From IMG/VR virus record IMGVR_UViG_3300020047_004329, positions 1 through 39,303 of that record: a stretch of 39,303 bases of DNA. One strand, written 5' to 3'. The position numbers were made by a program, and so were the translations under genes. The notes below the pieces were generated by a model, which was not told the origin of the DNA, searched no databases, and saw only the letters and a list, made by a program, of their open reading frames with translations. Of the stretch, positions 2,671 through 39,196 are shown one piece after another. The stretch is from a virus. Positions within the stretch are counted from its first letter, which is position 1; each line of letters starts with the position of its first letter.

Positions 2671-4293
2671 ATGGCAACCATCACCACAACTACTAGCCTG
2701 TCGTTCGACGCAGCGGCAAGCCTGACCGTGGGCGTTGACAAGAACTTTGAAGGCTCTATCGCGTTCACAAGTGCCAACGATGATGTGTGGCCGTCGTTCA
2801 CGGTGACGAAGCCGCAGAGCAAGGTGTACGGGCCGTTCGGCATTGCGATGACGGCGGTTATCACTGTTGGCAATGGATCGCTTGACTACACGATCAACGG
2901 GGGTATGGGCGGGTTTGGCTACGACACTGATGGCAATCCGACATCCCTGGTGTCAGCGGATGGGATTCCAAATACTCTGAGCGTGGGCGCAATCCAGGGC
3001 TTCAGCGCAGCGACCACGATCCCCGAGATTGTGTTTGACCAGTCCAAAGGCGGGCAGTACCTGTTTACGGCCTACGATGCTGGCAACAATTACACATCGT
3101 CGCTATCGGTTGCCACGGGCACGTTGGCAAGCATGACAAAGACGGCCATTTCCGCCACAAACGTCAGCAACTTGAAGGACACGGCTGGCGCGGCAATCAC
3201 GGCTGGCGCAGTTGTTTGCGCGTGGTGGATCAACGAAACCCGATTCATGTTCGTCGGCAAAAAGAACAGCGGCAACACGAATTACGTTTGGATTTGCGAC
3301 TACAACGGTGGCGCGTGGAAGGTCGGCAGCAACTCGACTACCTTTGACAACGGCAACGCCGTTCTCGCACTTGGCCTTTACTCTGGCGGGCAGGCTGGAC
3401 TTTCTGGGGTGCTGCACTCCCGTTCGGTTGCCATGAATTTGGACGCTTCCAAGATTCTGATTGCCGAGTACAACGTGGCAACCGGGCGCGTAACGGGTGG
3501 AACAAATGACGCAATCCGCGTCTACCAATCAGCCGATCAGGGCGCAACGTGGTCAGCATTGCTGACGCACAACACCAGCGGCAACCAGATGCGCCACTGG
3601 CATTTTGTGAAATTTGATCCATACAACAGCGCCCGACCATGGATCATTGGTGGTGGCGATGATCCGCTGAGTGCGTTGATCCGGTGGGATGGAACATCCA
3701 GCGCGCCCGCTGCAAATACGCCGCTGACACAGGCGGGTTTTGCTGGCTATCCGGGGTGGGAGGTCATGCACGACACGGCGGGGATTGAGTGCCGAAGTGG
3801 GGACATTGCGATCCATCCGCAGACGCTGCACTATATGTCGGACAACTCGGAAGTCAACACTGCAGAAAAGTACAACTTTCAAGTTTCCAAACATCGTCCA
3901 CTTGCCCGCGTGCGGGCGAATCAGCATGATCGCTCTATTGGGCGTTCCCCGTTGATTTGCTGCGAATTGCCAAACGGAGCGACGGTATGGGGCACGATCC
4001 GCGAGGCGCAGGACTTGGGGGCAGCGCCTGAATCGTGGCAGGGGTACGATTTCCTGTACACCCCGGACGGCGTCACCTTCCACAAGATCGCAAAGACGCG
4101 CGATGTCTCTGCCAGCGGCACCGGAACGCTGAGCAACATTTTCATGAGCAACGAGGGAATACTTGTAATTTCCGGGCTCAATGCGCGTGGCTGCAAGTTG
4201 CGGCCATCTGCATCCACGAATGGCGAGGGATCGCTGCTGGTGACGCTGCAGGCGTGGGACGGCGCGGTACGGACATTGCAAGGCACCGCCTGA
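2671..4293 (+). CDS. Asp-box (BNR) repeat protein, sialidase-like beta-propeller candidate
   Basis: 540-aa ORF with one canonical Asp-box (SADQGATW) and weaker copies (YTPDGVTF, YNGGAW). It sits unusually between portal and scaffold. Confidence 0.55.
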   Translation: MATITTTTSLSFDAAASLTVGVDKNFEGSIAFTSANDDVWPSFTVTKPQSKVYGPFGIAMTAVITVGNGSLDYTINGGMGGFGYDTDGNPTSLVSADGIPNTLSVGAIQGFSAATTIPEIVFDQSKGGQYLFTAYDAGNNYTSSLSVATGTLASMTKTAISATNVSNLKDTAGAAITAGAVVCAWWINETRFMFVGKKNSGNTNYVWICDYNGGAWKVGSNSTTFDNGNAVLALGLYSGGQAGLSGVLHSRSVAMNLDASKILIAEYNVATGRVTGGTNDAIRVYQSADQGATWSALLTHNTSGNQMRHWHFVKFDPYNSARPWIIGGGDDPLSALIRWDGTSSAPAANTPLTQAGFAGYPGWEVMHDTAGIECRSGDIAIHPQTLHYMSDNSEVNTAEKYNFQVSKHRPLARVRANQHDRSIGRSPLICCELPNGATVWGTIREAQDLGAAPESWQGYDFLYTPDGVTFHKIAKTRDVSASGTGTLSNIFMSNEGILVISGLNARGCKLRPSASTNGEGSLLVTLQAWDGAVRTLQGTA

Positions 4294-4339
4294 TCCCATC
4301 CCCTGCCGGTGGGTCACCGGCGCAAATTGAAAGGCAATT

Positions 4340-4651
4340 GTGGACTCCATCGAATCTGAAATCCAAGCCAAGGGGCTGACCGCCCCGCGCGTCACGCTCG
4401 ACGACCTGAACGCCGCCATCGCGCACACTGAGATCGTCAAGCACGTCTCGGCCGGAGGCCAGATCATGCGCTGGGCAGTCATCACGACCCGCAACGGCTA
4501 CGCCGTAACCGGACGCCCCTCGGTTGCGGTCTCCCCTGCCAACGACAACGCCGAACTCGGCGAGAAGCTGGCCGTGGACAACGCCCGCAACGAACTGTGG
4601 CCGCTCATGGGCTATGCACTGAAAGAACGACTGGGCGGGTATTTCCCATAA
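4340..4651 (+). CDS. Gp49-like protein (N4 gp49 / Sf6 gp66 family)
   Basis: 103-aa ORF with a GTG start after a gaaagg SD. The central TTRNGYAVTG...SPANDNAELGEKLA..NA...LWPLMGY pattern matches my memory of the Phage_gp49_66 family. Confidence 0.6.
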   Translation: MDSIESEIQAKGLTAPRVTLDDLNAAIAHTEIVKHVSAGGQIMRWAVITTRNGYAVTGRPSVAVSPANDNAELGEKLAVDNARNELWPLMGYALKERLGGYFP

Positions 4652-4790: not shown

Positions 4791-5618
4791 ATGGAAGATT
4801 TGGAACAACCGGCGACGGACTCCACAGTAGAAGACTTGCCCGAGGTAGATGACGAAGTTGTCAGCACTGATGAACCGGAACAAACCCCGGTGGAAAGTGA
4901 TGACGAGGAAATCGACTATGAAGGCGAGAAGTACAAAGTTCCCAAGAAGCTCAAAGATGCGTTTCTGCGCCAGGCGGATTACACCGTCAAAACGCAAACC
5001 ATCGCGGAGGAGCGACGGGCCTTTGAGGCTGCGCAACAGGAGTTTGTGCAGCGACAACAGTTTCAGAGTCAGCACATAGAGCGGATCGCTGAAGTCAAGG
5101 CAATCGACCACAGGCTAGAGCAATTTGGCAAGTTGGATTGGAACGCACTGACAGACGCGGACCCGGTGCAGGCCATGAAACTGGACCGCGAAATGCGCGC
5201 CCTGCAACAGCAGCGCGGCCAGCATGTAGCGGCTATCACCCAAGCGCAGGAGCAGGCGGCTCTCCAGACTCAACAGGCAACTGCAAGGAGTCTTCAGGAG
5301 GCACAAGCCACGCTTGCGCGGGAGATTACAGGGTACGGCACGCCAGAGGTCATGAAGGCCTTGAAGGCGACGGCAAAGGAGATTGGTTTTCGGGATGAGG
5401 AGTTGGCTAACGTCAATGACCCTCGCGCCGTGAAGCTGCTCTATGAGGCCAGCCAGTACCGCAAGCTGATGGCAAAGGCAAAGACAGCGGAAAAGCCCGA
5501 TGTGAAACCAATCACGCGGATCGCTGGCGCTACTGCCACGGCTGAGAAAAGTCCAAGCGCAATGACTGATTCCGAGTTCGCTAAATGGCGGCAGCGGCAG
5601 ATTGCACAACGTAAGTAA
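4791..5618 (+). CDS. scaffolding protein
   Basis: 275 aa with an acidic N-terminus and Q/A/E-rich coiled-coil composition. It lies immediately upstream of the coat gene, as P22 gp8 does. Confidence 0.65.
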   Translation: MEDLEQPATDSTVEDLPEVDDEVVSTDEPEQTPVESDDEEIDYEGEKYKVPKKLKDAFLRQADYTVKTQTIAEERRAFEAAQQEFVQRQQFQSQHIERIAEVKAIDHRLEQFGKLDWNALTDADPVQAMKLDREMRALQQQRGQHVAAITQAQEQAALQTQQATARSLQEAQATLAREITGYGTPEVMKALKATAKEIGFRDEELANVNDPRAVKLLYEASQYRKLMAKAKTAEKPDVKPITRIAGATATAEKSPSAMTDSEFAKWRQRQIAQRK

Positions 5619-5651: not shown

Positions 5652-7172
5652 ATGCCCAATTCTTTGGTCACTATCGACATGGTGACGCGCGAAGCGTTGC
5701 GTGTCGCCCATGAGTCGTGCCAGTTCATTTCCACCACGGATCGCCAATACGATAGCTCGTATGCGAAGACCGGTGCAAAGATCGGCGCATCCCTTCGTGT
5801 TCGCAAGCCGAACCAGTACACCCGCACCCAAGGCTCCCGAGTCATGGATGTGCAGGACCAGGACGAGCAGACCGGCACGATCACTGTGGCAACGCAGGAT
5901 CACGTCGACATGCGTTTCAATTCTGCTGAACTCTCTTTGTCTATCGACGAACTGAGCAAGCGGTACATCGAGCCCGCCGTTAAGGTGCTGATTTCCAGCA
6001 TCGAAGCGGACTATCTGGCCTATGCCACGAAGAAGGTCTACAACGTCGTCGGCTCCGCTGGCACTGCCATCACAACCCTGTCCACTCCTGGCCTGGCGCG
6101 TGCGCGGCTGAACCAGATGCTTGCACCGAAAGACAACAATCGCGCCATCCAGATGGACAGCGTGACGATGGCTGGTCTTGTCAACGGTATGGCTGCGTAC
6201 TTCAACCCGAGTAACGCTATCGCTTCGCAGTACAAAGAAGGCTTGGTGGCTCGCACCTCCATGGCCGACTACTACGAAAACGAGCGTGTCTGGTCGTTGT
6301 CGAATAGCGCAGACGTTACCGTTACGACCGCTGGCGCTGCTGCCGTCACCGATGGCGGAACGAACATCACGCTTGCATCCGTGGCTAATGCTACGACCGC
6401 TGGCATGGTGTTCACTGTCGCTGGTGTCTACGCTTGCCATCCGGAGACGAAGCAGTCTCTTGGTTACCTGCAGCCGTATGTCGTCGTCACTGGCGGCACC
6501 ACGACGCAAGAGGTTAGCCCCGCAACGATTCTGACCGGCCCGCGCCAAAACGTGTGCTCGTCTGCATCGGCGCAACTGGCGACAACTGCGTACAACGGCA
6601 CGGCTGTTGCGGTCACGTTCTTCGGCGCAGCCAGCACGACCTACGCGCAGCCGCTGATGTACCACAAGGAAGCGTTCCAGTTCGTCACGGCAGATTTGCC
6701 ATTGATGGACGACGCTCACAAGTGCGTGCGCCGGACGCAAGACGGGCTGTCGCTTCGCGTGTGGCAGGCATCGGACATCAGGAATGACGAGTTAACAAAT
6801 TCCTTTGCATCTGCGAACGACTTTTCGTTTGCAGTAGCTGCATAAAGACGGCTCCTTTTCGCGGGAACGCGGATCGAACATTTCTCTAATTCGGTGAACA
6901 ACTCTGCGGAGTCAATACCGAGCCAAGCCGCGATAAGCGGAAGGTGTAACGACTAGTCGAAAGACGTAGGGCCAAGCGGTCCGAAATGGGAAACAGCCAG
7001 AACGGCTGAAGAGATAGTCTGCTCTGCATGGTGACATGCAGCGGGTCGAACGACCGGGCGTGAAATAGCGAATCACGTTGAACATTTGGTGCTTATGCGT
7101 ATCGACATCCTGTACGGCATGGCCGCACTTCGCCCCGAGTGGGCTTGCCGAATGATCGGCGCGGCCAGCTAA
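5652..7172 (+). CDS. major capsid (coat) protein, P22 gp5-like, intron-split: join(5652..6792,7090..7172), 407 aa
   Basis: The exon 1 ORF runs on into a non-protein-like tail (stop 6843-6845). In the same frame, 7090-7172 encodes LLMRIDILYGMAALRPEWACRMIGAAS*. This matches the P22 coat C-terminus ([28 protein letters not shown]) with identical DI-to-RI spacing. A terminator follows. Confidence 0.8.
6793..7089 (+). ncRNA. group I self-splicing intron (IA2, T4 td-like), no internal ORF
   Basis: 7014-7042 (atagtctgctctgcatggtgacatgcagc) and 6947-6955 (taacgacta) match the T4 td intron as I remember it. Foldable elements: P2 6858-6873 (GGAA loop), P3 6881-6886/6988-6993, P4 6891-6895/6917-6921, P5 6901-6912, P6 6927-6940, P7 6951-6955/7015-7019, P7.1 6956-6965 (GAAA), P8 6994-7008, P9 7024-7041 (GUGA). 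The IGS ggctc (6850-6854) pairs with exon GAGU, with a U6792-G6851 wobble. The terminal G is 7089. Confidence 0.8.
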
Positions 7173-7176
7173 TTGA

Positions 7177-7200
7177 AGGGGCTTCGGCCCTTTCTCTTTC
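7177..7200 (+). terminator. intrinsic terminator after coat gene
   Basis: The aggggc-TTCG-gccctt hairpin (UUCG tetraloop) is followed by a T/C-rich tract, 5 nt after the exon 2 stop. Confidence 0.6.
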
Positions 7201-7221: not shown

Positions 7222-7434
7222 ATGGCAGCACAAGACTACGAGCAGGTAACGTACAACGGCCCTGAAGGCGCACAAATCGGCAAATCGGCCACGGAGAAAC
7301 TTGGTTTTTTCGGTGCCACGCCGGTCGTGCAAATTGCGAACGTGGTTGACGCCACGGACGCGGCAACGGCTATTACCAAGCTCAACGCGGTGATCGCTGG
7401 TCTGGAGTCGCTGGGCCTGTTTGCATCGGCCTAA
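7222..7434 (+). CDS. small head-associated protein (hypothetical)
   Basis: 70-aa ORF with a good SD (aaggaaaaatc-ATG) directly after the coat terminator. The KLGFFGATPVVQ motif is common in small genes downstream of coat genes. Confidence 0.55.
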   Translation: MAAQDYEQVTYNGPEGAQIGKSATEKLGFFGATPVVQIANVVDATDAATAITKLNAVIAGLESLGLFASA

Positions 7435-8068
7435 TGTGACTGGGCGACTGTTCATCTGTTCGCCCTCTTTTAGCGGGGACTATTGCGCCCCGTTCACAGA
7501 ATCATTGGTCGGGTCTATCAAAGACCTCGGCCAGCACGGCATCAAGTCTGTCTATAAGACTTTGGTGGGTGTGCATTGGATTGACATCGCCAGAGACATC
7601 CTATCGGCGGTGTTCCTGAAAACTGATTGCACGCACATGCTCCAGATCGACGCCGATCTGGGGTGGAGTGCAGACGCGCCGCGCAGGATGATCGAAGCGG
7701 ATAAGCCCGTTATAGGCGGCACTTACCCAATCAAGGCAGATGTGTCGCACTACTCGCTTAAACGTGATGGCGGGGCGATTACGGGCCTTCCCGGCGGCTT
7801 CTTGATGGTGCGCCGCGATGTTGTTGAGCGACTAAGCGCTGGGCCTAAGTATGCGTGTGCATCGCTGCAGTTTGGAGCAATGGAAGTCGCCCCGCTGTTT
7901 ACCCGCGTGTTTCGGGATGGCGGCTACCAAGGCGAGGACTACGCATTTTGCGCCAGGGCAATCGCTGCTGGTTACGAACTGGCGCTAGAGGCAAATATTG
8001 ATTTTGTCCACGTAGGACGAAAGGAATGGCATGGGAATTTCTCTCACACACCCGCAACGGCAGTCTAG
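7421..8068 (+). CDS. glycosyltransferase (GT-A fold, family 2-like)
   Basis: 215 aa with a DxD-type motif (QIDADL), PGGFLMVRR and GEDYAFC motifs typical of small phage/LPS glycosyltransferases. The exact start is uncertain because it overlaps the upstream gene. Confidence 0.6.
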   Translation: MHRPNVTGRLFICSPSFSGDYCAPFTESLVGSIKDLGQHGIKSVYKTLVGVHWIDIARDILSAVFLKTDCTHMLQIDADLGWSADAPRRMIEADKPVIGGTYPIKADVSHYSLKRDGGAITGLPGGFLMVRRDVVERLSAGPKYACASLQFGAMEVAPLFTRVFRDGGYQGEDYAFCARAIAAGYELALEANIDFVHVGRKEWHGNFSHTPATAV

Positions 8069-8261
8069 GCAATACGCCTACTCTGACCGCGATATTGCGT
8101 ATCTTGAAAAAAACGGATGGGTGCGCGAGAAGCCGCCAGAGCAAGTTGCAGTTCTTGTGCGGCAGATTGAAGACGACATTCTTGCTGGCGCTGGTTCGAC
8201 AAACACGGCCTTTGCTGCCGTCATCAAAAGCAAGGGCGGGCGACCCCGTAAGGTGAAATGA
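8031..8261 (+). CDS. hypothetical protein
   Basis: 76-aa ORF coupled to the next gene by an ATGA overlap. Basic C-terminus (GGRPRKVK). Confidence 0.4.
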   Translation: MGISLTHPQRQSRQYAYSDRDIAYLEKNGWVREKPPEQVAVLVRQIEDDILAGAGSTNTAFAAVIKSKGGRPRKVK

Positions 8262-8896
8262 GCATCACCACATATGCCGAACTGGTCACCGCGCTAGATG
8301 GCTTCGACGGCTATCTGCACCGCACCGACCTGACGGCGAAGATTCCCGACTTCATTGCACTCGCTGAATCGAAGATCAATCGCAAGCTGCGCGTTCTGCT
8401 GCAAGAAACGGAAAGCACGCTGACGGCTACGATTAGTAGTCGACTGATGGCAGCGCCCACAAGATTCGGCACGCCTATCGCGCTGTGGCTGACGACAGAC
8501 GAACCACGCGACGAACTGATCTATCGCACGCCGGAAGACTTGCCGGTAACGACGACTAACGGCGGCTCGGATTACTACACGGTCGACGGCTCCAACATCG
8601 CCACCGAGAATCCAGCCGACCAAGCCTACAGCTACACGCTGCGCTACTGGACACGTTTCGCGCTGGCAACGACTTCCACAAACACGGTGCTGACGAACTA
8701 TCCCGACGCCTATGTCTACGGGGCGCTGTGCGAGTCTGTGGGCACTACCCGCGACGACTCGCAACTGCAACTGTGGGAGGCGCGGTTTAACGCTGCGATC
8801 AAAGAAGCAATGACCGACACCACGAAAACCAAGGGCACTGCCACGCTACGAACTGAGTTCGGCGGGGATCGGCCCTCAATCCTGCGAGGTTACTAG
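8258..8896 (+). CDS. putative head-tail adaptor / head completion protein
   Basis: 212 aa placed between the head genes and the tail fiber. The N-terminal TYAELV...IPDFIALAESKINRKL pattern resembles connector/adaptor proteins. Confidence 0.4.
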   Translation: MSITTYAELVTALDGFDGYLHRTDLTAKIPDFIALAESKINRKLRVLLQETESTLTATISSRLMAAPTRFGTPIALWLTTDEPRDELIYRTPEDLPVTTTNGGSDYYTVDGSNIATENPADQAYSYTLRYWTRFALATTSTNTVLTNYPDAYVYGALCESVGTTRDDSQLQLWEARFNAAIKEAMTDTTKTKGTATLRTEFGGDRPSILRGY

Positions 8897-9414
8897 GCAA
8901 TGTGCGTCCACACCTTACGCGCGAGGATTCTTGAAATTACGTCTTGGCCAACTCCTAATTCGCGCGCAATAACGCCTTGTTTTCTTGTGTCTGCGCGTAT
9001 TCTCAAAACATCATCGCTAGTCAATTTGGCACAAGGGTTTTTTTCTCCTCGATTGGTTCTGCCTAGTTTTTTGGCATCTGCCATGTTCCCCTTCCTCGTG
9101 TCCCATCGCAGATTTTCCAGTGTGTTGTTTGTCCGGTTGCTGTCTTTGTGGCAGGCATCAAATGACTTCGGCATTTCTCCAACAAAAGCCATAAGGACAA
9201 GTCTGTGAACACGATGTTTTGTCCTGATGTTTTCTTTGCACAACGTGAGTGCGAGATAGCCCCATGTCCCAGTGTGCGGAGCAAGGATCGCGCCCTTAAG
9301 TTTTTTTGGTCCGCCGCTGTAATGCTTAACGATCCTATCTTCGCTACGTATCGCGCCAAGATTGGACGCGCTGTAAAGGCCTTCGTACCCTGGTATCGGC
9401 TTCCATATTTCCAT
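8893..9414 (-). CDS. HNH homing endonuclease (NUMOD4 + HNH)
   Basis: 173 aa with EIWKPIPGYEGLYSASNLG (NUMOD4) and HRLVLMAF...CHKDSNRTNNTLENLRW (HNH). It is one of only two candidate minus-strand genes in the virion operon (the other is the low-confidence 18102-18227 ORF). It is visibly AT-richer than its flanks. Confidence 0.85.
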   Translation of the reverse strand: MEIWKPIPGYEGLYSASNLGAIRSEDRIVKHYSGGPKKLKGAILAPHTGTWGYLALTLCKENIRTKHRVHRLVLMAFVGEMPKSFDACHKDSNRTNNTLENLRWDTRKGNMADAKKLGRTNRGEKNPCAKLTSDDVLRIRADTRKQGVIARELGVGQDVISRILARKVWTHIA

Positions 9415-9465: not shown

Positions 9466-10365
9466 GTGGCATTAGAAAGCGCGACCTATATCAGCGATCT
9501 TGTCTCCACCAATCCCACTGGTAGCGACGGCAAGGCGGCAGGCGACGACCATATCCGCTTGGTGAAAAGCACGGTCAAGGCGACGTTTCCGAACGTGGCC
9601 GGGGCTGTGACTCCGACGCATACGGAACTGAATTTCGTTGACGGCGTGACCAGCGCGATACAGACACAGCTTGATGCGAAAGCGCCCATTGCCTCGCCTA
9701 CGTTCACCGGCAACCCTGCGGCCCCTACACCAAGCCCTGGCGACAATGACACATCTATTGCGACGACGGCATTTGTAGCCACCAGCTTTGCGCCACTTGC
9801 TTCACCCACATTTACCGGCGTTCCCGCTGCGCCTACCGCATCAGTTGGCACCAACACGACACAGCTTGCGACCACTGCATTTGTGATCGCTGAGTCGTTC
9901 GTTAGCGCCCTTCCATCGCAGACGGGCAACGCGGGGAAGTACGTAACCACAGACGGCACTACGGCAAGCTGGGGCAGTCTTTCCGCTTACGCCACCACGG
10001 CAGCGGTGGCGGCATCGTATGCGCCACTCGCAAGCCCGACGCTGACCGGCACGCCTGCGGCACCTACAGCAACAGCGGGGACAAACACCACTCAACTTGC
10101 GACGACTGCTTTTGTCACTGGTGCAGTGGGCGCGTATGCGGCTGGGGCGATTGGAACGTATGCGATGTGCCGTGATAGTGGTGGCGGAACCCTTGCTTTT
10201 GGCGACACGGTTGCCGGCAGCTCGCTGGAAAACGCAGGGATAAATTTTCCAGCGAGCGTTGCCGCATCAATTGCGGGTCTCTCTTCTTTGTCTGGCACTT
10301 GGCGATGCATGGGCTATATGGCAGGCAGCACAAATGACACGACGATTTTCGTGAGGATTTCCTGA
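9466..10365 (+). CDS. tail fiber protein
   Basis: 299 aa with a GTG start. It has the N-terminal ATYISDLVSTNPTGSD...GDDHIRLVKSTVKATFPNV motif. Three repeats of ASPTFTG.PAAPT...T.(I/L)ATTAFV form the phage tail fibre repeat. Confidence 0.85.
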   Translation: MALESATYISDLVSTNPTGSDGKAAGDDHIRLVKSTVKATFPNVAGAVTPTHTELNFVDGVTSAIQTQLDAKAPIASPTFTGNPAAPTPSPGDNDTSIATTAFVATSFAPLASPTFTGVPAAPTASVGTNTTQLATTAFVIAESFVSALPSQTGNAGKYVTTDGTTASWGSLSAYATTAAVAASYAPLASPTLTGTPAAPTATAGTNTTQLATTAFVTGAVGAYAAGAIGTYAMCRDSGGGTLAFGDTVAGSSLENAGINFPASVAASIAGLSSLSGTWRCMGYMAGSTNDTTIFVRIS

Positions 10366-35755: not shown

Positions 35756-36045
35756 GCAAGATCACGGCAAGCGCAAACGGCGAAGACTGCCAGGTGCGGA
35801 TTGTTGGCGTGTGCACATTCGACCCTGCCAAAACCATATGGAGCCATGCGCGGCACGGTTCGGCAGGTAAGGGCAAGAGCATCAAGGCGCTAGACATTGC
35901 TGGCGCGTATGCCTGCACGGCATGCGATGCCGCCTATGACCAACTACAGGGGGTCGGGCATATGACGCGGCAGGAAGTCGATTTAGATTGGTTCCACGGC
36001 CATCTAAGGTCGCTGGTGATATTGGCTAACAAGGGGTTGATATGA
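35752..36045 (+). CDS. YbcO/DUF1364-like protein
   Basis: 97 aa with a GTG start (GTGA overlap). The GEDCQVRI.GVC..DP..T.W.H...G.GK..K..D......C..C pattern resembles lambdoid YbcO-family proteins. Confidence 0.55.
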   Translation: MSKITASANGEDCQVRIVGVCTFDPAKTIWSHARHGSAGKGKSIKALDIAGAYACTACDAAYDQLQGVGHMTRQEVDLDWFHGHLRSLVILANKGLI

Positions 36046-36587
36046 GCGATGAGACTTGGAAGCAGCTTCCGGGGTATGGCGGGCACTACGACGTTTCCGA
36101 CATGGGGCGCGTAAGGGTAAGGGACCGGCATGTAGAAAGAAAGCACCCAACCGGCATGATTGTTAAGTTCTTTTACCCTGGCCGACTTTTGCAGCCATGC
36201 GCATCAGGCAGGTACGGGCACCAATCCGTTCACGTTGGGGTCGGTGGAAAGCGGTACAGCTTGGCTGTGCATTGGATGGTACTGGTTACGTTTGTAGGGC
36301 CGCGCCCGGAAGGCATGGAGGCATGTCACGGGAACGGCAATGCGTCGGACAACAGGCTTCAAAACTTGCGATGGGATACGCATTTCGAGAACAACCAAGA
36401 CAGAAAGCGTCACGGACGTTATGCAACTGGCGCAAAGCATGTCATGGCAAAACTGACCGACGAAACCGTGCGGGAGATCAAGCAATCTAGCATGAATGGA
36501 CTGCAAGTGGCGCAGCGTTACGGCATCGGAACCAGCACGGCTCACAGGATATTGACTGGCAAGTCTTGGGCGCATGTCTCCGCTTAA
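36042..36587 (+). CDS. HNH homing endonuclease (NUMOD4 + HNH), second copy
   Basis: 181 aa with WKQLPGYGGHYDVSDMG (NUMOD4) and HWMVLVTF...CHGNGNASDNRLQNLRW (HNH). Same architecture as 8893-9414. Confidence 0.85.
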   Translation: MSDETWKQLPGYGGHYDVSDMGRVRVRDRHVERKHPTGMIVKFFYPGRLLQPCASGRYGHQSVHVGVGGKRYSLAVHWMVLVTFVGPRPEGMEACHGNGNASDNRLQNLRWDTHFENNQDRKRHGRYATGAKHVMAKLTDETVREIKQSSMNGLQVAQRYGIGTSTAHRILTGKSWAHVSA

Positions 36588-37029: not shown

Positions 37030-37298
37030 TGTTTTTTCACAAGAAGTCGGACATTGAAGGATTGCAGGAAGAGATAAAGGCATTAAAGGCGCGACTGTGG
37101 GCGCTGGAAGATGCCACAGCAGTTTATGAGGCCCCTTCTCGTTTCTCATTTGTTGGGTGCAAGCAAATAAAGATAAATGCCGCCATCAATGCTATGTTGC
37201 GGAACATGGGACTTCAGCTTAAATCAGTGCCGGCAACACATGAATATGTCACTGCCGAACTGATGCCGGTAAATAATGACTTGCACACATCGGAGTAA
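37026..37298 (+). CDS. hypothetical protein (AT-richer insert)
   Basis: 90-aa ORF with an ATGA overlap to Q. The late promoter -35 lies in its last codons. Confidence 0.5.
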   Translation: MMFFHKKSDIEGLQEEIKALKARLWALEDATAVYEAPSRFSFVGCKQIKINAAINAMLRNMGLQLKSVPATHEYVTAELMPVNNDLHTSE

Positions 37299-37309
37299 TG
37301 TGTTATTGT
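37281..37309 (+). promoter_or_regulatory. late promoter (PR'-like)
   Basis: TTGCAC (37281-37286), 17 nt, TATTGT (37304-37309). About 50-70 nt downstream is a strong terminator, mirroring the lambda PR'-tR' (6S RNA) unit acted on by Q. Confidence 0.5.
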
Positions 37310-37362
37310 GCGCGGGTCAATAGACGTTTATCCACGCTTTGCGGCGGCGGAACTGTCAGTAA

Positions 37363-37388
37363 AGCCAGGCAAGTCGCTGGCTTTTTTC
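37363..37388 (+). terminator. intrinsic terminator (tR'-like)
   Basis: The agccag-gcaagtcg-ctggct hairpin is followed by TTTTT. Confidence 0.65.
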
Positions 37389-37394
37389 GTTTCT

Positions 37395-37500
37395 GCATCA
37401 GTAGCTCAGTGGCAGAGCAGTCCCCGCCCCGAGTAGCTGGTTTCCAGCGCGGCCAGCGATGCGGTATTGGCCGCTGGTTCGAGTCCAGCCTGATGCACCA
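37395..37500 (+). tRNA. tRNA-shaped gene without a canonical anticodon arm (106 nt, encoded CCA)
   Basis: Perfect 7-bp acceptor stem (GCATCAG/CTGATGC). D arm GCTC-AGTGGCA-GAGC. T arm GCTGG-TTCGAGT-CCAGC. Discriminator A plus CCA. The 53 nt between the D and T arms contain no 5-bp/7-nt anticodon hairpin in any register I tried. Confidence 0.55.
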
Positions 37501-37531
37501 TTTGCCCTCCTTGGTCGCTTCGGCGGTCTTC

Positions 37532-37564
37532 GCCCCTGCTTTGAGTAATCGGCAGGGGCTTTTT
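37532..37564 (+). terminator. second intrinsic terminator in late leader
   Basis: Perfect 8-bp stem gcccctgc/gcaggggc with a 12-nt loop, then TTTTT. Confidence 0.6.
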
Positions 37565-37596
37565 CATTTGGCGAACAATCCCCGAAAGGAATTCGC

Positions 37597-37914
37597 ATGG
37601 CTAACTCAACAGCGTTTAAGAAAGGCGAGAAAAAGCCGAACCAGGGCAAGCGCGGACCCGGCAAAGTGACATTGCAAGCCCGTGAAGCTATCGCCAAGCT
37701 CGCAGACGGCAACGTCGATAGGTTGCAGGGCTGGCTAGACGATATCGCCGCTGATGACAAACAAGGGCCGGCGGTTGCCTTCAAGCTGTTCATGGATGTG
37801 CTGGAGTACCACGTTCCGAAGCTGGCCCGCACAGAACACACCGGCAAAGACGGCGACGTAATCCGCCATCAGGTGATTACGCGCACGATCATTGACCCCC
37901 GTGCTGAATCTTGA
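37597..37914 (+). CDS. terS: terminase small subunit
   Basis: 105 aa with a basic N-terminus (FKKGEKKPNQGKRGPG). Immediately upstream of and overlapping the large terminase gene. Confidence 0.6.
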   Translation: MANSTAFKKGEKKPNQGKRGPGKVTLQAREAIAKLADGNVDRLQGWLDDIAADDKQGPAVAFKLFMDVLEYHVPKLARTEHTGKDGDVIRHQVITRTIIDPRAES

Positions 37915-39196
37915 GACTCCGCGCATATTCGTACCGCTGCTAAAGCCATCAAGATACAAAGGCGTTGACGGCGGGCGCGGTTCCGGCAAGTCTCATTTCT
38001 TTGCGGAGAAGTTGATAGAGGACTGCATGGCAGAGCCGGGAGACTTTGGCGAGGGAATGCGCGCAGTCTGTATCCGCGAAGTACAAAAGGACTTGGCGCA
38101 GTCTTCCAAGGCGTTGATTGAGTCGAAGCTGAGTAAGTACGGGCTTGGCGAGGCTGACGGGTTCAAGGTGTTCAAGACTGAGATTGAAACGCCTGGCGAC
38201 GGCCTGATGATCTTCAAGGGCATGCAGGACTACACAGCAGACTCAATCAAGTCACTGGAAGGGTTCAAACGTGCTTGGTGGGAAGAGGCGCAAACGGCCA
38301 CGGCAATATCACTGAACATGCTACGCCCGACACTGCGGGCCGATGCTTCGGAGTTGTGGTTTAGCTGGAATCCCCGGCGCAAGACTGACGCGGTAGACGA
38401 AATGCTTCGCGGCGAGTCGCTGCCAACAGACGCAACAGTCATCCGGGCCAATTGGCGTGATAACCCGTGGTTTCCGTCAACCCTGGAGCAAGAGCGTTTA
38501 GATTGCCTGCGCATGCAGCCAGAGCAGTACGACCACATATGGGAGGGCGGTTATGCAACCGTTCTGTCTGGCGCTTACTATGCAAGGTCGATAGCTGACG
38601 CAACAACGCAAGGCCGAATAGGTCGCGTGTCTGCTGACCCGCTGATGACGCGGCAAGCGTTCTTTGACATCGGCGGGACTGGTGCAAAGGCTGACGCTGT
38701 AGCGATATGGGTCGCGCAGTTCATCGGCAAAGAGATACGCATTCTGGACTACTACGAAGCAGTCGGGCAACCGCTGGCGGTTCATCTGGAATGGCTTCGC
38801 TCACGCGGCCATGGATCGGCAAAGATCGTGCTACCGCACGACGGTGACACCAACGATAAGGTGTACGACGTAAGTTATGCGTCTGCATGCCGTGCTGCGC
38901 AGTTCAAGGTAGAAGTGATCCCGAACCAGGGCAAAGGCGCAGCAAAGGCGCGCATCGAAGCCGGGAGGCGTCTATTCCCCGCGTGCTGGTTTAACCAGGC
39001 CACAACGCAAGCGGGACTTGATGCGCTGGGCTGGTATCACGAAAAGAAGGACGACAAGCGAAACATTGGGCTTGGTCCTGAACACGATTGGGCAAGCCAC
39101 GGAAGTGATGCATTCGGCCTGATGTGTGTCGCATACGAAGAGCCTAAGGTAAAGAAACCACCGGCAGCACAAAGATCAACCTCTTGGATGGCCTGA
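37892..39196 (+). CDS. terL: terminase large subunit
   Basis: 434 aa with Walker A GGRGSGKS after RYKGVDGG, a downstream Walker B/nuclease region, and PBSX/P22-type layout. The start is TTG at 37892 or GTG at 37901. Confidence 0.9.
   Translation: MTPVLNLETPRIFVPLLKPSRYKGVDGGRGSGKSHFFAEKLIEDCMAEPGDFGEGMRAVCIREVQKDLAQSSKALIESKLSKYGLGEADGFKVFKTEIETPGDGLMIFKGMQDYTADSIKSLEGFKRAWWEEAQTATAISLNMLRPTLRADASELWFSWNPRRKTDAVDEMLRGESLPTDATVIRANWRDNPWFPSTLEQERLDCLRMQPEQYDHIWEGGYATVLSGAYYARSIADATTQGRIGRVSADPLMTRQAFFDIGGTGAKADAVAIWVAQFIGKEIRILDYYEAVGQPLAVHLEWLRSRGHGSAKIVLPHDGDTNDKVYDVSYASACRAAQFKVEVIPNQGKGAAKARIEAGRRLFPACWFNQATTQAGLDALGWYHEKKDDKRNIGLGPEHDWASHGSDAFGLMCVAYEEPKVKKPPAAQRSTSWMA

Follow-up and report, generated by a model that had tools for sequence, protein, structure and literature searches.

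The window analysed here is the whole of the virus record IMGVR_UViG_3300020047_004329, a stretch of 39,303 nt (39.3 kb; G+C content 57%) that has the look of a nearly complete P22-like phage genome. Its P22-type coat gene, whose neighbours are a P22-like portal gene and a scaffold protein gene, is interrupted by 297 nt, at positions 6793-7089. We consider it highly probable (about 0.93) that the interrupting sequence is a self-splicing intron of group I, subgroup IA, similar to the intron in the td gene of phage T4, and that it resides in the coat gene of an uncultivated podovirus-like phage. The features of the locus, all on the plus strand, are as follows.

5652-6792, plus: coat exon 1, 380 codons and the first base of codon 381, ending in U6792; placed by the alignment of homologues to ...SDIRNDE and by the DNA alignment with the empty site
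6793-7089, plus: group I intron of subgroup IA (td-like, IA2-like), 297 nt, without an open reading frame (ORF); recognised by its match to RF00028, its exact absence from intron-less alleles and covariation
6843-6845, plus: in-frame stop codon TAA, 5' of the guide and close to it, 51 nt inside the intron; predicted to terminate translation of unspliced RNA
7089, plus: terminal guanosine (omega-G), with the 3' splice site between G7089 and U7090
7090-7172, plus: coat exon 2, the last two bases of codon 381, 26 codons and the stop codon at 7170-7172; the C-termini of homologues are identical or near-identical
7175-7194, plus: terminator-like hairpin with a T-run, 3 nt past the exon 2 stop, by consensus match only

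The interrupted coat gene

As read directly, the coat ORF spans positions 5652-6845 and encodes 397 aa ending in ...NDELTNSFASANDFSFAVAA, with TAA at 6843-6845; the next ORF begins at 7222, so that the gap which a preliminary description of this DNA had put at 375 nt is in fact 376 nt long. In the same frame, 7090-7172 reads (L)LMRIDILYGMAALRPEWACRMIGAAS*, and joining 5652-6792 to 7090-7172 gives a 407-aa protein, as had been claimed. The joined protein matches the Pfam family P22_CoatProtein (PF11651) with 79.8 bits, against a gathering score of 24, over positions 9-423 of the 423 in the profile, and in an alignment with a solved P22-like coat protein (8skg_F) its C-terminus falls on the C-terminal strand; no Pfam family matched the unspliced 397-aa ORF. 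A protein search identified more than 4600 coat homologues, the best 26 uninterrupted ones having 407-408 aa and an identity of 92-95%. Across the junction, the uninterrupted proteins among 44 aligned homologues all read ...SDIRNDE(L/M)LMRIDILYG..., as anticipated, and the tail TNSFASANDFSFAVAA is confined to the window's own gene call. That call is the public protein P0027, which is exactly the truncated 397-aa product that standard gene callers had been predicted to return; it carries no Pfam domain and is the sole truncated entry among the coat homologues found.

The same junction emerges from alleles without the intron, which were compared with the window at the DNA level (L003 and L004, with 82-83% nucleotide identity; L212, with 90.8%; and two GenBank phages). 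At the place of AATGACGAGT-[297 nt]-TGCTTATGCG in the window, these alleles have AATGAYGARTTGCTGATGCG, and the surplus of the window over these alleles is exactly 297 bases, between T6792 and T7090. The borders of the intron are fixed to the base, because only the cut 6792|7090 gives an exon ending in U and an intron ending in G. Thus, as judged from homologous proteins and intron-less DNA alleles, the junction is settled independently of any RNA model. An alternative junction, 6800|7089, which the preliminary description had kept in view, fails to reproduce the sequence of the homologues. The terminator-like hairpin past exon 2 is kept in the intron-less relatives L003 and L004, and no similar site was found on the plus strand after the stop codon at 6843-6845.

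Predicted fold and likeness to the td intron

A search with the Rfam model for group I introns, RF00028, which had been proposed as a check, matched positions 6834-7041 on the plus strand with 66.4 bits (gathering threshold 50; E-value 7.6e-15; model positions 1-253 of 253), and this was the only Rfam intron match in the window. Helices were assigned by homology with related introns, and the structure was counted on an alignment of 12 of these (A1); minimum free energy (MFE) folds were used where indicated. The elements, all on the plus strand, are listed below.

6789-6793/6850-6854: P1, 5 bp, -4.8 kcal/mol; its loop L1 (6794-6849) is 56 nt long
6789-6793: 5' strand of P1, exon GAGU plus intron U, with the 5' splice site after U6792
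6850-6854: internal guide GGCUC, the 3' strand of P1
6811-6834: 10-bp hairpin inside the long loop L1, seen in MFE folds; the region is not common to the relatives
6858-6863/6868-6873: P2, with a GGAA tetraloop, from the MFE fold; an equivalent P2 with GGAA lies at the same place in L202
6881-6886/6988-6993: P3, 6 pairs, 4 of them compensatory, 100% paired; 3' strand GGGAAA
6891-6895/6917-6921: P4, 100% of cells paired, with compensatory changes
6901-6904/6909-6912: P5, loop UGCG, 97.9% of cells paired, with compensatory changes
6922-6924/6943-6945: P6, with a C-G to G-C swap
6928-6931/6937-6940: P6a, loop GAUAA, two covarying pairs
6951-6955/7015-7019: P7, GACUA/UAGUC, the guanosine-binding helix; J8/7, AAGAGA, precedes its 3' strand
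6956-6958/6963-6965: P7.1, loop GAAA, 2 of 3 pairs compensatory
6969-6973/6978-6982: P7.2, loop AAGC, 4 of 5 pairs compensatory
6994-6998/7004-7008: P8, a short hairpin with loop AGAAC and no ORF, 5 of 5 pairs compensatory
7024-7030/7035-7041: P9, loop GUGA, 3 compensatory pairs
7044-7047/7052-7055: P9.1, loop GAAC, 2 compensatory pairs
7059-7063/7073-7077: P9.2, 5 of 5 pairs compensatory

On A1, 98.2% of the cells are paired in this fold; sliding the 3' partners by 1-3 columns lowers the figure to 35-42%. Both sides have changed in 32 of the 56 pairs, and not one of the observed measures was reached in any of 500 shuffles. Compensatory changes are present in P3, P4, P5, P6, P6a, P7.1, P7.2, P8, P9, P9.1 and P9.2. 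P7 is invariant in all 12 related introns and identical in td, an invariance that constitutes no covariation evidence; the innermost pair of P7.2 (C6973-G6978) falls in a gapped column and is paired in six of the 12 rows. The window itself has all its core helices intact, with standard pairs only, and an unconstrained MFE fold recovers most of the hairpins unaided (z = -2.84). A group I core, P3-P8 with the P3/P7 pseudoknot, is thus found with covariation support, the P7 pairing being consistent with it, and the assignment to group I is supported both by the covariance model and by covariation across the related introns.

The 5' parts of the introns differ, which places P1 outside the reach of covariation on A1. 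Its pairs in the window are G6789-C6854, A6790-U6853, G6791-C6852, U6792.G6851 and U6793.G6850, and direct reading bears out the earlier account of a U at position -1 (U6792), a G as the last intron base (G7089) and the guide GGCUC. In the window, in L202 and L191, in the Bacillus phage SerPounce and in td, the 4-5 bases that follow the conserved G at the homologous position complement the end of their own exon; the base at -1 is always U, and all five introns end in G after a UGAAYA motif. P1 and P2 as drawn here match the homologous layout in L202. The first helix of the Rfam alignment (6838-6846/6856-6864) was tried as P1 and rejected; it leaves the U at the splice site unpaired and the guide in a loop. 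In the MFE fold, an exon-intron hairpin, AGGAAU/AUUCCU (6780-6785 with 6799-6804), holds the 5' splice site in its loop, and this hairpin could be in competition with P1. The preliminary description had drawn P2-P9 with GNRA loops, which is correct for L2 (GGAA), L7.1 (GAAA) and L9 (GUGA) and incorrect for L5, L6a, L7.2, L8 and L9.1.

The intron contains no homing endonuclease ORF, in agreement with the earlier account: the longest stop-free stretch has 67 codons and lies on the minus strand, and the five longest stretches on both strands gave no Pfam match even at E<=1. An endonuclease encoded within the intron, the mark of a mobile (homing) intron, was thus not found. The ORFs of introns are usually housed in loops such as those of P6a, P8 and P9, and here P6a, P8 and P9 are short closed hairpins. 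The identity of the intron, its exact borders, its conserved fold and its lack of an ORF are established by these results.

Helices P7.1 and P7.2 between P7 and the 3' strand of P3 are the mark of subgroup IA (PMC3984707), and both are present, so that by its predicted fold the intron is a member of this subgroup. A finer assignment, to IA2 as opposed to IA1 or IA3, rests on similarity to td, and we accordingly call the intron IA2-like. The td intron itself we take to be of class IA2. It was obtained from a T4-type phage (L005, 1301-2316) and compared directly with the window. The preliminary description had given two segments as identical to td; one, TAACGACTA at 6947-6955, is identical, and the other, 7014-7042, which spans J8/7, P7 and P9, agrees at 28 of 29 bases, with C7022 in place of an A in td. 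The 3' ends are alike, as had been said (...TGAACATAATG in td, ...TGAACATTTGG in the window; at greater length, UGAACAUAAUG and UGAACAUUUGG, respectively). Over the alignable core the two introns are about 76% identical; both have a P1-P9.2 architecture with P7.1 and P7.2 at the same places, a UGAACAU...G 3' end and a U.G pair at the 5' splice site, and both begin with UAA. With long blocks identical to td in the 3' half, and with P7.1 and P7.2 present, the label td-like is a fair one, and td, which shares these blocks, is self-splicing by experiment. The differences lie elsewhere. The td intron is 1016 nt long and carries the I-TevI endonuclease gene in a loop, whereas that of the window has 297 nt and no ORF; td has a tiny P1 loop and a stop codon at intron bases 1-3, whereas the window has a 56-nt P1 loop and a stop codon 51 nt in; and the td host gene encodes thymidylate synthase, that of the window a virion protein. 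Moreover, td is not the nearest relative of the intron.

Distribution, relatives and possible mobility

Coat loci were searched with the intron by blastn (word size 7) and nhmmer. The intron is absent from all 97 related coat loci (80 from IMG/VR, 13 from GTDB, two GenBank phages and two ENA contigs), and at all 97 the protein matches run unbroken for about 1.2 kb. The intron is inserted within RNDELLMR, the most conserved peptide of the coat protein; of the 84 loci in which this motif could be found, 74 have it unchanged. Insertion sites of introns and homing sites are typically found in conserved sequence (PMC2814812, PMC3984707). The bins that hold coat relatives are Rhodocyclaceae, Nitrosomonas, Burkholderiales, Rhodoferax, Ideonella, Methylococcaceae and Competibacteraceae metagenome-assembled genomes, several of them from activated sludge, which hints at the host range.

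Parts of the core are shared by 671 GenBank phage records, none of which covers 80% of it. The lineage of the intron is widespread in uncultivated phages: its marker, a 24-mer from P7-P7.1-P7.2, AACGACTAGTCGAAAGACGTAGGG, which differs from td, occurs in 104 metagenome stretches (L108-L211), none of them similar to the coat exons of the window. The best three of the 104 (L202, L181 and L165) share 77-78% identity with the window's intron between P2 and the 3' splice site and are the closest relatives found; their introns, of 271 nt, have the same helices, lack an ORF and also interrupt a capsid gene. That gene, however, encodes a major head protein of an unrelated family (phrog_1328), the guide is GUCC, pairing with exon GGAU, and the P1 loop has 23 nt. 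Other members of the lineage lie in tape-measure genes (L191 and L125, with four near-identical copies in L121, L179, L177 and L206), in a large terminase gene (L188) and, in Klebsiella phage RCIP0099, in the DNA polymerase gene (Rfam, 70.6 bits). An HNH-like ORF is located upstream of the intron core in L176. Exact-word scans of IMG/VR with an 18-mer from the guide and P2 and a 17-mer from the 3' junction gave six loci, which we attribute to chance (no similarity to the coat region, no Rfam hit).

The Bacillus phages SerPounce (KY947509; L008, 1491-1702), Claudi and Baseball_field have their major capsid gene filed as two coding sequences in GenBank. In SerPounce, the gap of about 210 nt between the two is a group I intron of the lineage found in the window, with 77% identity over 161 nt, and the records of all three phages appear to carry an unannotated intron in the capsid gene; a literature search on introns in SerPounce and Claudi yielded nothing relevant. 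As in the window, the intron of these phages (Salasmaviridae) is short, lacks an ORF and splits the major capsid gene near its 3' end; it differs in its Gram-positive host, in the phi29-like capsid protein, in having no P2 and in scoring below the Rfam gathering threshold. Since this threshold misses SerPounce as well as td, whose core is split by the ORF, the absence of an Rfam hit in a relative is uninformative.

Group I introns are common in phages, and large surveys keep adding more (PMC11878797). For the introns in the capsid gene of LittleE and a tail gene of BAKA, both Cluster J mycobacteriophages, splicing was shown by RT-PCR (reverse transcription-PCR), and the same paper cites a capsid intron of the lactococcal phage Tuc2009 (PMC3706429). 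Like the intron studied here, these interrupt genes for structural proteins of the virion, are preceded by U at -1 and have G as their final base (PMC3706429); the BAKA intron (265 bp) also lacks an endonuclease gene, whereas that of LittleE (819 bp) carries an endonuclease ORF and is of a type that its authors call 'unclear, most likely group I' (PMC3706429). All three phages are siphoviruses of Gram-positive hosts, and the likeness to the window is one of description. Spliced introns in capsid genes and ORF-less phage introns are therefore known already, and the high interest assigned to the intron in the preliminary description was overstated (PMC3706429). The site is one at which no relative examined has an intron; no report of a group I intron in a P22-type coat gene was found in the open-access literature.

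The intron cannot home alone, because it has no endonuclease gene, and would persist by vertical inheritance or move with help provided in trans. Two genes of the window come into question as helpers:

8893-9414, minus: free-standing HNH_3+NUMOD4 gene, 173 aa, between the SU10-type adaptor gene (8258-8896) and a structural gene (9466-10365)
36042-36587, plus: second free-standing HNH_3+NUMOD4 gene, 181 aa, upstream of the terminase region

The first is on the opposite strand within a plus-strand structural block, and it lies downstream of the intron at a distance of about 1.8 kb; neither L004 nor L015 has a gene at this position. In three intron-less relatives, an HNH gene directly follows the coat gene (L002, 2751-3332; L079, about 3768-4340; L083, about 3791-4360), in the place held by a conserved 70-aa gene in the window and most relatives; by this comparison, mobile endonucleases have repeatedly settled in the 3' flank of the coat gene. 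The intron might have been mobilised in trans, or brought in, by a free-standing HNH enzyme whose cut in intron-less coat genes falls at the insertion site or close to it, the intron protecting the coat gene from the cut. The conserved insertion site would suit such a history, as would the identity of the exons to the closest intron-less allele, which drops from about 90-100% to 78-83% in the last 120 nt or so around the site; another dip lies mid-gene, however, and the pattern comes from one comparison. The pathway is documented in T4 and a cyanophage (PMC2790892, PMC3984707): mobE with the nrdB intron of T4, and F-CphI with the psbA intron of cyanophage S-PM2, combine, as the window does, an ORF-less or defunct intron with a free-standing endonuclease (PMC2790892, PMC3984707, PMC6083498). 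There, however, the endonuclease gene adjoins the gene with the intron and the cleavage site is mapped, whereas the nearest HNH gene of the window is about 1.8-2.1 kb from the site, in a mechanism that depends on close proximity (PMC2790892), and the coat site is a candidate target only. Moreover, the HNH proteins of the window are only 25-33% identical to the coat-adjacent ones of the relatives, and the intron's presence in one of about 98 loci is unlike that of an actively spreading element. We regard mobilisation or delivery in trans as unlikely, and rate a shade lower still the more specific proposal of collaborative homing, in which the coat intron without an ORF would be paired with the free-standing HNH endonucleases found in these phages, and the pair would target the conserved RNDELLMR-coding site. 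If that were true, the coat-adjacent HNH enzymes of the relatives would cut the intron-less coat genes of co-infecting phages, the intron would ride along and immunise its carrier, and the capsid gene would be a battleground between related phages in wastewater communities.

Expected splicing, genome setting and annotation

A self-splicing intron of this kind would be removed from the late transcript in two steps. By pairing with GAGU at the end of the exon, the guide GGCUC (6850-6854) would form P1, in which the splice site is marked by the U6792.G6851 wobble, and an exogenous guanosine bound in P7 would attack after U6792; the freed 3'-OH of U6792 would then attack after G7089, joining the exons as ...GAC GAG U|UG CUU AUG... 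(expected junction of the ligated exons, ...GACGAGU-UGCUUAUG...). The spliced mRNA would encode the full 407-aa coat protein, and unspliced RNA only the 397-aa product, which lacks the conserved C-terminal 27 residues. Because the coat protein is needed in hundreds of copies per particle, splicing must be efficient; the small ORF-less ribozyme is therefore a reasonable candidate for study in vitro.

Several observations weigh against this reading. The insertion is known from one genome only, among about 98 loci. P1 has only 5 bp (-4.8 kcal/mol), and the loop that it closes is, at 56 nt, unusually long and without comparative support; the Rfam alignment sets its first helix elsewhere (6838-6846/6856-6864) than the P1 and P2 drawn here. 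A candidate P10 (6839-6844/7094-7099, -6.9 kcal/mol) was dismissed, 16% of random exon 13-mers pairing as well. The stop codon lies 51 nt into the intron and not at its start as in td, and ribosomes might therefore translate across the 5' strand of P1 and the L1 hairpin and come as far as the guide's edge. Three features that are not those of td, the weak P1 with its long loop, the late stop codon and the competing hairpin, could affect the efficiency of splicing. Finally, we infer splicing, and its independence of proteins, from membership of the family and from DNA sequence.

The single known copy and the weak P1 would also fit a decayed intron, dead for splicing, in a defective phage that makes the 397-aa protein or no coat at all. 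We judge this very improbable: the core helices are intact, with standard pairs throughout, exon 2 is intact, in frame and essentially identical to its homologues, and the 397-aa product loses the conserved C-terminus and escapes the family profile. The coat gene is also unlikely to be dead because the 39.3-kb contig otherwise resembles the genome of an intact phage, its portal, scaffold, adaptor, terminase and lysis genes all being intact in appearance. That the 297 bases are an assembly artefact (a chimeric join), as might be asked of a metagenome contig of which no second copy was found, or are bridged in some other way, such as by translational bypassing, is hardly credible, in view of an insertion whose borders are precise to the nucleotide, with U before it and G as its last base, a guide complementary to this very exon end, which is not expected of a random chimera, a length far beyond the bypass of about 50 nt in T4 gene 60, and a group I fold that accounts for the region completely.

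A spliced group I intron thus remains the preferred reading, and has consequences for annotation. The coat gene is mis-annotated, the public 397-aa call being recognised by no family profile, and genomes of this sort would be missed or mis-scored wherever the major capsid protein is what a pipeline uses to class viral contigs. The P22-type coat gene, in a phage with relatives in betaproteobacterial and gammaproteobacterial bins, joins the virion genes invaded by group I introns, and one td-like lineage (104 metagenome finds) hops among the most conserved phage genes: those of two capsid families, tape measure, terminase and DNA polymerase. The intron overturns no current understanding; it is cleanly delimited, useful for annotation and unsurprising to the specialist.

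The remainder of the window includes adaptor (SU10-type), tail, lysis and recombination genes in addition to the following:

48-2309: P22-type portal gene, upstream of the coat gene
4791-5618: scaffold protein gene, directly before the coat gene
37892-39196: large terminase gene

Downstream of the coat gene, 7222-7434 (plus strand) encodes a 70-aa product of no known function, which follows the coat gene in 57 of the 97 related loci; in some other relatives a 161-aa gene directly follows the coat gene instead. The 215-aa product of 7421-8068 (plus strand) matched only phrog_1574 (unknown function) and had no Pfam hit. Just upstream of the large terminase gene, overlapping the ORFs 37298-37669 (plus) and 37398-37847 (minus), Rfam gave a tRNA match at 37395-37497 (plus strand; 48.1 bits against a threshold of 29), and ARAGORN called no tRNA across the whole window. 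The acceptor, D and T arms of the match are perfect and its CCA is encoded, but the anticodon arm has 44 nt (13 in the model); the match may represent a tRNA whose anticodon arm has received an insertion, an element that resembles a tRNA, or a remnant.

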